NCBI GenBank assembly: GCA_044222065.1 | Contig: JBGAOA010000030.1 | Location: forward strand, 1-51,698 | Source of the DNA: Candidatus Eiseniibacteriota bacterium | Lineage (GTDB): Bacteria; Eisenbacteria; RBG-16-71-46 | Direction: 5' to 3' | DNA length: 51,698 nucleotides | Shown here: one piece after another, positions 49,993 to 51,698 of the stretch | Numbering within the stretch: position 1 is the stretch's first letter | How the letters are laid out: every line of letters begins with the position of its first letter | Made by a program: the position numbers

Positions 49993-51698
49993 CGAGAACG
50001 CGATGAAGCGGCTCGCCGCACTGTACGTCGGCGAGGGCGAGGTGGACGCCGAGGCCGTGACCTCGCTCTTGAGCCGCGACGAGGCGGTCGAGTCCGCCGT
50101 CGCCGTGAGTGGCGAGGACGAGCGCTCGCGCATGCTCAGCGCGCATCGCGAGTCGCGCGGCAACAAGAGCCGCATGGCCGAGCTGCTCGGGATCTCGCGC
50201 AAGACTCTGTACGCGCGGCTCAAGCGTCTGGGCCTCGAACTCTGATCGAAGTCCCTCGATGTGCTTCGCGGCGAGCCTGAAGGCTCGCCGTTTCGCTTTC
50301 CGACCGACTCGACGACCGCTTCCTCCGTGTCACCCTGTTACCGTGAGGTGACACTCCACCAACCACATGGCTTCCAACGGTTTGGTGGGATCGAGGGCCG
50401 CACCTCGTGTTACCGCAATCGGTGACACCTCGAGCGCTCGAGCCTCGATCACGAGCGGGCATCACGAGCGCGTGGCGCCAAGAAAGCACGATTTTGGCGG
50501 GTTTTTCGCGCTACTCGCGTGTCCCACACCGATTCGTGACGAGTGGCACGCAGGGTGCTGAGTGTCGTCCGCGGATACGGGGATCGTTGCTTCAACAGTA
50601 GTCGCAGGGGCGAGTCTCTCAGGGGAAGGAGACTCACGACCAAGGGCGGCCCGTTCGCGGGTTCGCACCTCCATCGGCGATCGAGGCCGCCCGAGGTCAG
50701 CCCCGCAATCGAAGCAGCGCTTCGCTCGCAGTAGATGTAAGTCGGAGGGCGACTCGATCGCCCGGGGCTCGTACCCAACTGACACTGCTTGATCTCGTTC
50801 AGTACTCGACTCGAAAGGGGTGAGAGGAACTCAGGTCAGTCGAAGTTGTCAGTTCGGTGAGTAGTGGTTCAAGTTCGTCACAAAAAACCAAATACGCCCG
50901 GTCAACGAAGCCGGGAGAGCAGAGGGGTTCATCCCGGTCACTCCCTGTTCTCTCGGGAAGAGGCAGCCAGAAGCAGTCGACCTGGCTGCCTTTTCGCTTG
51001 GGGTCGAATGGGCCCGATGCTAGCTTGCCCCGCCATGCCTCGCTCCAAGCTCTCGCTCGGTTCGACCTCTCTGCTCGCGTTCGCGCTCGCCCTGAGCGTC
51101 GGCAGCTGCGGCGGGAACGCAGGAGACGACGCCAGCACGTCCGCGCAGGGCACGCCGCCGGCGAATCCGCCGGCGTCCACTCCGTCCGCAGGGGATTCGG
51201 CGTCGGCAACCGCGATCGACGGTGCGGCGATCTTCGCCAGCCGTTGCGCGCTGTGCCACGGCCCCAGCGGGCACGGCGATGGGACCGCGGCCAAGGCGCT
51301 CAATCCGAAGCCGCGGAACTTCCGCGATGCCGCATACATGAGTTCGCGGACGGACGAGCAGCTGCTGGAGGTCATCCGCAACGGCAAGGGCGCGATGCCC
51401 GCGTGGGGCAAGAGTGGAACGCTGACCGAGGCGCAGATGCGCGAGGTGCTGCGACACGTGAGGTCGTTCGCCGGTCAGCCTTGACGGGCCCGGGCTCCCC
51501 GGAAGAGCATTTGAACCGCGCGGGGAGCGGCTGATCTTGACAGTGCCCGAATCGGCTGACTATGTTGCGCGCGCTTGCCCTCGACGCCCTTCGCTGGCGT
51601 AGCTCAACTGGTAGAGCATCTCATTTGTAATGAGGTGGTTGGGGGTTCGAGTCCCTTCGCCAGCTCAGTTGTCGCCGCGGCGCCCCCGCGGTCGCGGA

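Follow-up and report, generated by a model that had tools for sequence, protein, structure and literature searches.

The window analysed here, a stretch of 51,698 nucleotides from a Candidatus Eiseniibacteriota genome, contains an annotation gap behind a gene for a TPR activator, and the question raised by this locus is whether the gap encodes an RNA and, if so, what drives that RNA and on what it acts. The first-pass annotation had placed here a structured RNA of a new family, driven by a sigma-54 promoter. We could confirm that the gene is real. It occupies positions 50573-50995 of the window on the forward strand and specifies a small RNA of about 425 nt, as supported by its promoter, conserved blocks, fold, terminator and contigs from RNA runs.

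A sigma-54 -24/-12 box (TGGCAC-N-TGC) was found at 50544-50559 on the forward strand, which places the predicted +1 near 50570. The box is present in 73 of the 75 loci collected in this study (71 of 72 had been counted before) and its spacing to the conserved 5' block of the RNA is 27-30 nt across loci. The locus shares with the class of sigma-54 activator-dependent small RNAs a conserved -24/-12 box at a fixed distance from the 5' end, together with a linked GAFTGA and HTH activator and enhancer-like repeats upstream.

All internal elements lie on the forward strand. The RNA 5' end is a conserved 10-nt block, GGATACGGGG (50573-50582, seed 1), followed by a conserved, anti-SD-like hairpin loop, GCACCTCCATC (50665-50675), for which the GGGGTG block is a possible partner; the CACCTCC loop motif occurs in 58 of 74 RNAs and is absent from the short forms. 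Another conserved block, GGGCTCGTACCC (50765-50776), which shows no covariation with the RNA 5' end, is duplicated with its hairpin in two relatives. Seed 2, AAAGGGGTGA (50814-50823), is the GGGGTGA block, whose presence is associated with TCACCC in the peptide leader. The A-run (50882-50887) and the invariant 20-nt core (50891-50910) together form seed 3, AATACGCCCGGTCAACGAAG (50882-50910), with predicted unpaired fractions of 0.77 for the A-run, 0.69 for the 3' half of the core and 0.37 for its 5' half. A hairpin recognized by its covariation, with a second CCCGGTC in its loop (50911-50956), and an intrinsic terminator (50957-50995), found in the fold and in a terminator listing, complete the RNA. 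The promoter, A-run, core, hairpin and terminator named in the first-pass annotation were all recovered where it had put them. A module of hairpin and GGGGCTCGTACCC is tandemly duplicated within the RNA of L074 and L076 and therefore behaves as a unit. Downstream of the RNA there are only ordinary neighbours, a cytochrome c gene (51035-51484) and a tRNA gene (51593-51665).

The RNA region folds better than all 100 of its shuffled versions (z -5.2). No Rfam 15 family, Qrr, CrcZ, GlmY, Pxr, CsrB and 6S among them, was found at the gathering threshold over the RNA, as had been stated before; the two weak matches at the 3' end (E 0.53 and 3.9) are chance matches far below the gathering score, and Rfam on eight related loci returned tRNAs only. 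The hairpin covaries as claimed: in 52 of the 72 distinct 3' modules, all from the main family, nine of 14 pairs changed on both sides, with 70 double-changed cells against 9.5 in shuffles, and the double changes are far above both controls. No plausible gene is read from the 425 nt in the window. RNA lengths range from 292 to 538 nt across loci (ends approximate), no reading frame is conserved across loci, and the block spacing modulo 3 is distributed 20/11/10, which supports the non-coding nature of the gene.

A 19-nt core pattern retrieved 75 loci from GTDB, mostly titled Ca. Eisenbacteria, with cysRS, peptide, activator and RNA as the usual gene order. In 73 of them the sigma-54 box and the C-terminal part of the activator lie directly upstream on the same strand. 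The other two, L052 and L067, have no such locus and look like chance hits of the pattern; with these set aside, the activator linkage is 73 of 73 and stronger than the 35 of 72 given earlier. The second loop motif is found in 70 of the 75 core loci. As to the terminator, its presence here stands, and the pattern used now matched in 56 of 75 loci where 62 of 72 had been reported. Five records titled as other phyla (L055, L076, L085, L089 and L090) bear the Eisenbacteria locus and are probably mislabelled.

BLAST of the RNA region gave matches in 43 of 61 genomes, distributed as 33 of 36 in the same family, nine of ten in the second family of the order (including G038), none of three in the third family and none of 11 in the rest of the class. 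Twelve same-family genomes without an activator orthologue are also without the RNA (0/12), most simply because the contig is missing. A model search for paralogues in the genome of the window (G000) gave none beyond a weak match in a coding region, and 68 other genomes yielded two weak matches, one of them coding-like; viral contigs gave no match. Genome G011 has two copies of the whole peptide-activator-RNA locus (L066 and L100; L016). Searches of the literature on Eisenbacteria RNAs, on TPR activators with peptides and on self-repressing sigma-54 sRNAs gave no publication on this RNA, although supplementary tables of RNA-motif screens could list it. A sigma-54-driven non-coding RNA of an undescribed family fits all tests, and the claim of novelty is upheld in that the family is previously undescribed.

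Expression of the RNA, as judged from assembled contigs, is supported but not proven. With a 1.7-kb query, 14 RNA runs from four studies held 16-34% of the words, about the share of the RNA, and unlabelled runs held up to 90%. In a comparison over 8.7 kb, identical contigs cover 50591-50911 or more in four of four RNA runs from four studies; the four contigs span 50593-51012, 50609-50910, 50591-50911 and 50607-50911. The coverage reported earlier was reproduced, with starts slightly later here (50591-50609) than the 50581-50593 given before. Three contigs end at 50910-50911, the end of the single strand, a weak hint at RNA priming or processing rather than DNA. The contigs carry neither strand nor ends and their gaps are uninformative; some DNA or read-through is present, given a shallow contig that spans the promoter (50436-50604) and, in one run, contigs scattered over other places. 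The peptide leader is among the few parts covered by RNA-run contigs, in three of the four runs. Bacteria of this group are present in sludge and bioreactor metatranscriptomes.

The peptide and activator genes upstream, also on the forward strand, form an operon with a sigma-70-type promoter (TTGACC, 18 nt, TAGGCT; 47245-47274), matched in 61 of 63 loci. The leader of the peptide gene, about 145 nt with a long 5' hairpin (47280-47428), is supported by folds and by the RNA contigs, and measures 130-163 nt across loci where the start is well called. The 122-aa peptide (47429-47797) has a signal-peptide-like N-terminus (judged by eye), a Gly/Pro linker with a conserved GDPD and an amphipathic C-terminus, and no Pfam family was found for it. 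A small hairpin, CGATTC...GAATCG, occupies codons 2-8 (47432-47453) just after the start codon and is seen in many relatives. The activator (47844-50245) consists of TPR, sigma-54 AAA+ and Fis-HTH domains according to domain matches. In this assembly it is split into three frames with breaks near 49570 and 49770, either by assembly error or because the gene is broken, and it is one open frame in most relatives; GAFTGA or GAYTGA is found in the activator of 53 of 56 main-family loci. The terminator listing places a terminator-like hairpin behind it (50268-50298).

Between this hairpin and the sigma-54 box there are two enhancer-like inverted repeats, to which no strand is assigned: a distal one, TGTTACC...GGTGACA, at about -210 (50336-50353) and a proximal one at about -138 (50408-50427). 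At least one repeat occurs in 64 of 73 loci and two in 39 of 73. Paired repeats with a sigma-54 box were found at this locus only, both in G000 and in 2.4 Mb of G019, and a single repeat with such a box at three other places in G000. Together with the linkage and the co-absence of activator and RNA, this confinement supports the suggestion that the RNA is the likely output of the peptide-activator pair. At C41:3284-3450 of G000 a single repeat of the same type has a sigma-54-like box 148 nt downstream, a possible second target of the activator. A different conserved direct repeat, TTGAC-N6-TGACA followed by GATAACCT, lies upstream of degP (L361-L393; G000 C7 near 49550) and resembles a response-regulator box plus -10.

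What the RNA acts on had been left without an answer, a statement now overtaken, as three conserved blocks of the RNA have conserved complements in the mRNA of the operon itself. The likely target is this operon, with the first ten nucleotides of the RNA predicted to pair with the leader loop. The principal site (leader site 2), TCACCCCGTATCC at 47317-47329 on the forward strand, forms the apical loop of the leader hairpin and is complementary to the RNA 5' end over 10 bp and to the GGGGTGA block; its last 10 nt are the exact complement of 50573-50582. In G000 this 10-nt complement occurs at the leader site only, apart from the RNA gene itself. The longest perfect complement that the leader offers to the first 14 nt of the RNA has a mean of 8.9 nt and reaches at least 9 in 43 of 61 loci, compared with an average of 4.8 nt and a frequency of 0.6% in shuffled leaders. 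Non-cognate leaders average 7.7 nt and none of 10,000 permutations reached the cognate 8.9, statistics that are overstated because the loci are related.

Double changes that keep the pair occurred at no fewer than four separate places on the tree, which was built from 59 activator proteins by a quick method: G1A with C-to-T in L086 and in L088, and A3G with T-to-C in L090 and in one five-member clade. Written as RNA, the natural swaps include AGAUAC/GUAUCU and GGGUAC/GUACCC. In L109 the pair is rewritten as one of 8 bp, and joint decay of the RNA 5' end and the leader site was observed in L060/L102, L042/L051, L059 and L070. With four of the 61 loci set aside as lost or shifted, the changed cells comprise nine double Watson-Crick changes, nine single changes to G-U and ten mismatches, eight of the latter in three decaying loci. 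The RNA has in this way the hallmark of a base-pairing sRNA, a conserved seed with a covarying complement in an mRNA. The leader site is mostly unpaired in the predicted fold (mean 0.74 in 51 loci) and three of three co-folds pair it with the RNA 5' end, which is itself mostly paired within the free RNA (predicted unpaired 0.37).

Further contacts are possible on the same leader. TCACCC is found in the leaders of 31 of 41 loci whose RNA has GGGGTG or GAGGTG and in seven of 20 others, counts in which kin are not independent. A second place (leader site 1), of the CCGGGCG type (ATCGGGC here; 47285-47293, forward strand), lies in the 5' arm of the hairpin base and is complementary to the 5' half of the core. 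In 24 of 61 leaders CCGGGCG lies within 20 nt of the leader start, and the opposite hairpin arm varies; as the base of a hairpin, the site may owe its conservation partly to structure.

The loop site is displayed about 100 nt upstream of the Shine-Dalgarno (SD) sequence of the peptide gene. When the leader sites were blocked in silico, SD access went up in seven and down in 11 of 47 loci in one case and up in eight and down in 18 in the other, with no consistent direction; for the loop site the shift exceeded 0.05 in only four of 51 loci. Release of the peptide ribosome-binding site by an anti-SD mechanism is not supported by these folds. That the RNA 5' end pairs internally with the GGCTCGTACCC block was also rejected, as this block does not track the changes of the 5' end.

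A second predicted target, in the main family, is the ribosome-binding site of the activator, across which the RNA can pair. Here TGACCGG (47828-47836, within 47826-47836 on the forward strand) overlaps the SD sequence GGAG and is the complement of CCGGUCA in the RNA. GACCGG is found at -32 to -2 of the activator in 34 of 56 main-family loci, compared with 80 of 3213 G000 genes, and in L062 and L073 the complement to the core extends to 12-13 perfect pairs. With the 14-nt 3' half of the core as seed, the activator site is in the top 5% of the genome background in 41 of 56 loci and ranks first among 876 G000/G019 orthologue pairs, a seed that was chosen after the site had been seen; the activator ranks 8th with the loop copy and 27th of 876 with the full 20-nt core, which places it 48th of 3213 in G000 alone. 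Codon choice at a second GACCGG, in codons 4-6, is only weakly skewed (23/45 versus 75/234, p 0.017). No covariation is visible at this ribosome-binding site since the core seed is invariant. The second family lacks the site (0 of 7 loci in the top 5%) though its core is identical, so something else must also keep the core fixed.

Targets outside the operon were searched in several ways. Exact 7-mer complements shared by the 876 G000/G019 orthologue pairs were coding-constrained or promoter matches only, in a comparison covering 2.4 of the 3.6 Mb of G019 with starts from a simple custom gene caller and a short-form RNA without the CACCTCC block. Duplex ranking near the gene starts of these pairs and across 327 intergenic leaders with seven seeds gave no convincing second target, and none was found among neighbouring genes within 6 kb. 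For the degP leader, no complement that is both conserved and transcribed was found in G000, in G019 or in 38 of 80 metagenome loci, and degP is thus not counted as a target of this RNA. In 61 genomes, the 17 off-locus matches of a 12-nt leader motif that were examined were all in differing genes. The core complement, sought in 50 genomes, is equally frequent in outgroups; among the 35 off-locus matches sampled, the shared matches fell on a -35 box and on antisense coding sequence. TTGACC is also the -35 box of this lineage, and promoters with it match the core over long stretches by chance. It would be odd for a loop to act on itself only, and further targets of the RNA probably exist, given that the core is invariant where the activator site is lost.

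Full-length homologues of the activator, with 35-38% identity, occur in other families of the class, and in 12 of 20 regions a sigma-54-type box was found behind the homologue (one doubtful; one region is cut by a contig end). The conserved non-coding sequence behind these boxes is different and family-specific. In L154 such a sigma-54 RNA has 9- and 12-nt complements to its own leader; a survey of RNA-leader helices in the other families, covering three of 11 loci, gave nothing above chance. The same logic, in other sequences, is seen in L153 and L154, where the leader of the operon has two places complementary to a short sigma-54 RNA, namely to its 5' part and to its pyrimidine stretch. In L155-L157 a different sigma-54 RNA follows the activator, with a repeated hairpin unit containing GGGAGGGGTCC and GGGGTAGAGG; L156 and L157 have two copies of the unit, and no Rfam match was found in L156. 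A third conserved sigma-54 RNA behind the activator was seen in L148, L150 and L152, with the blocks GGGCCGCGGACGATGG, GTGGACATAAA and GTCCGCG; in L148 and L152, GTCCGC could pair with GCGGAC just 5' of the peptide start codon. Finally, in L140-L142 the operon leader and the sequence behind the activator both contain a motif of the AACGAGGTCA type, in the same orientation.

Taken as a circuit, the sequence evidence favours, with fair probability, a trans-acting base-pairing sRNA as the main output of the TPR/sigma-54 activator, with feedback on the peptide-activator mRNA. The activator would bind the two upstream repeats and open the sigma-54 promoter, as the promoter, repeats and linkage indicate. 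The RNA 5' end would then pair with the exposed loop of the leader hairpin, as complementarity and covariation suggest, and the GGGGUGA block and the 5' half of the core may add contacts on the same leader in a nested antiparallel order. In the main family only, CCGGUCA, present once single-stranded and once in a loop, would pair across the SD region of the activator and lower its synthesis, giving negative feedback. The effect on the peptide may be repression, decay or activation, which cannot be read from folding, and that the secreted peptide is the signal of the activator is a guess from anatomy. A search of 50 genomes gave no Hfq match and one of G000 no ProQ; a target displayed in a loop and several seeds would suit pairing without a chaperone. 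A broader and distinctly tentative proposal is that a one-component TPR/sigma-54 activator senses a secreted GDPD peptide and has as its sole output a long, Hfq-independent, multi-seed RNA docking on its own mRNA and on effector mRNAs, with the chassis kept across the class and the RNA exchanged by family; this would be an undescribed kind of quorum sensing.

Other explanations of the same sequences carry less weight. The leader might act as a sponge, an abundant peptide mRNA capturing the RNA 5' end and setting the level or lifetime of an RNA whose main targets lie elsewhere. The distance of the loop from the SD sequence, the nearly unchanged SD access when it is blocked, the RNA contigs over the leader and the invariance of the core where the second family has no activator site all point this way, but the activator site overlaps an SD sequence, which fits regulation of the mRNA, and no outside target emerged from the orthologue pairs or the sampled core matches, so that we regard this as unlikely. 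A protein decoy in the manner of CrcZ or CsrB, titrating an RNA-binding protein such as CsrA through the repeated CCCGGUC, the A-run and the loop motifs, seems somewhat less likely again: CsrA is found in 47 of 49 same-order relatives, some RNA blocks have no partner and one is duplicated, and size and position resemble CrcZ, but GGA is not enriched (10.5 versus 10.9 per RNA; ANGGA 1.4 versus 2.4), Hfq is absent, and a decoy would share same-sense motifs with mRNAs where complements changing together are observed. That few canonical CsrAs are predicted in Eisenbacteria, according to PMC13443453, was counted for the decoy. With about 1.3 unpaired GGA per RNA, the RNA does not belong with CsrB/RsmZ.

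That the matching sequences are DNA sites of one transcription factor, in opposite orientation at two promoters, we consider very improbable. Both sites do lie near transcription starts and the lineage's -35 box does yield chance core matches, but the factor would have had to change anew for each of the single-base changes found at both sites in separate lineages, G-U pairing accommodates nine single changes, and the leader site is held in an RNA loop. The idea of a diverged housekeeping RNA or small-protein gene draws on a single-copy gene near-universal in two families and on the SD-like GGGGTGA; it is scarcely credible and already largely refuted, as 6S, RNase P, SRP and tmRNA are on other G000 contigs and neither a start nor a frame is conserved. 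The csrA gene itself is near-universal and highly conserved in the order; in G000 it lies on C121 (L033 1501-1957), followed by a short gene that we take to be FlgM-like, with flagellar genes on C103.

The arrangement of a feedback sRNA with its activator has several parallels. In RRNPP sensors (Rap/Phr, PlcR/PapR and NprR/NprX), as at this locus, a TPR regulator adjoins a small gene whose peptide product begins like a signal peptide. The present TPR part, however, is fused to a sigma-54 AAA+/HTH module, the peptide gene is upstream and the output is an sRNA. LuxO of Vibrio is a sigma-54 activator with qrr1 adjacent, and the Qrr RNAs are Hfq-dependent. PMC3262071 describes a negative loop in which an sRNA, made under the control of an activator, represses that activator by base-pairing, and in which separate regions of the sRNA serve separate targets; the Qrr RNAs, however, are about 100 nt long, in one to five copies and fed by a phosphorelay, whereas the RNA described here has 290-540 nt, a single copy and a TPR activator. 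It also occurs in genomes without Hfq, complements the leader of an upstream peptide gene and has no sequence likeness to the Qrr family, of which it is not a member. In Myxococcus, the sigma-54 regulator gene pxrR lies directly upstream of the promoter of the Pxr sRNA and is required for its synthesis, although the input of the PxrK/PxrR system is two-component, no peptide gene is described (PMC10217877), and there is no sequence likeness; Pxr is short with three stem-loops (PMC5684412). CrcZ of Pseudomonas is likewise a long RNA with a -24/-12 promoter behind the gene for an RpoN activator, CbrB, but sequesters Hfq/Crc through several AAnAAnAA motifs (PMC5113210); the present RNA has one A-run, no Hfq and antisense covariation, and so falls outside the CrcZ family. 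On the best reading, it would work most like the LuxO-Qrr feedback and sits like Pxr behind pxrR or CrcZ behind cbrB, as a member of none of them.

An uncultured phylum thus yields a regulatory RNA that is conserved and has a predicted target, and repeated compensatory changes between two separately transcribed RNAs pinpoint the exact bases of the predicted pairing. It points to sRNA feedback without Hfq and, in the one genome searched, without ProQ, and it suggests that loops of a sigma-54 activator and an sRNA, of the LuxO/Qrr kind, had independent origins and can be coupled to a peptide/TPR input. As these bacteria occur in sludge and bioreactors, the circuit may control community behaviour there.
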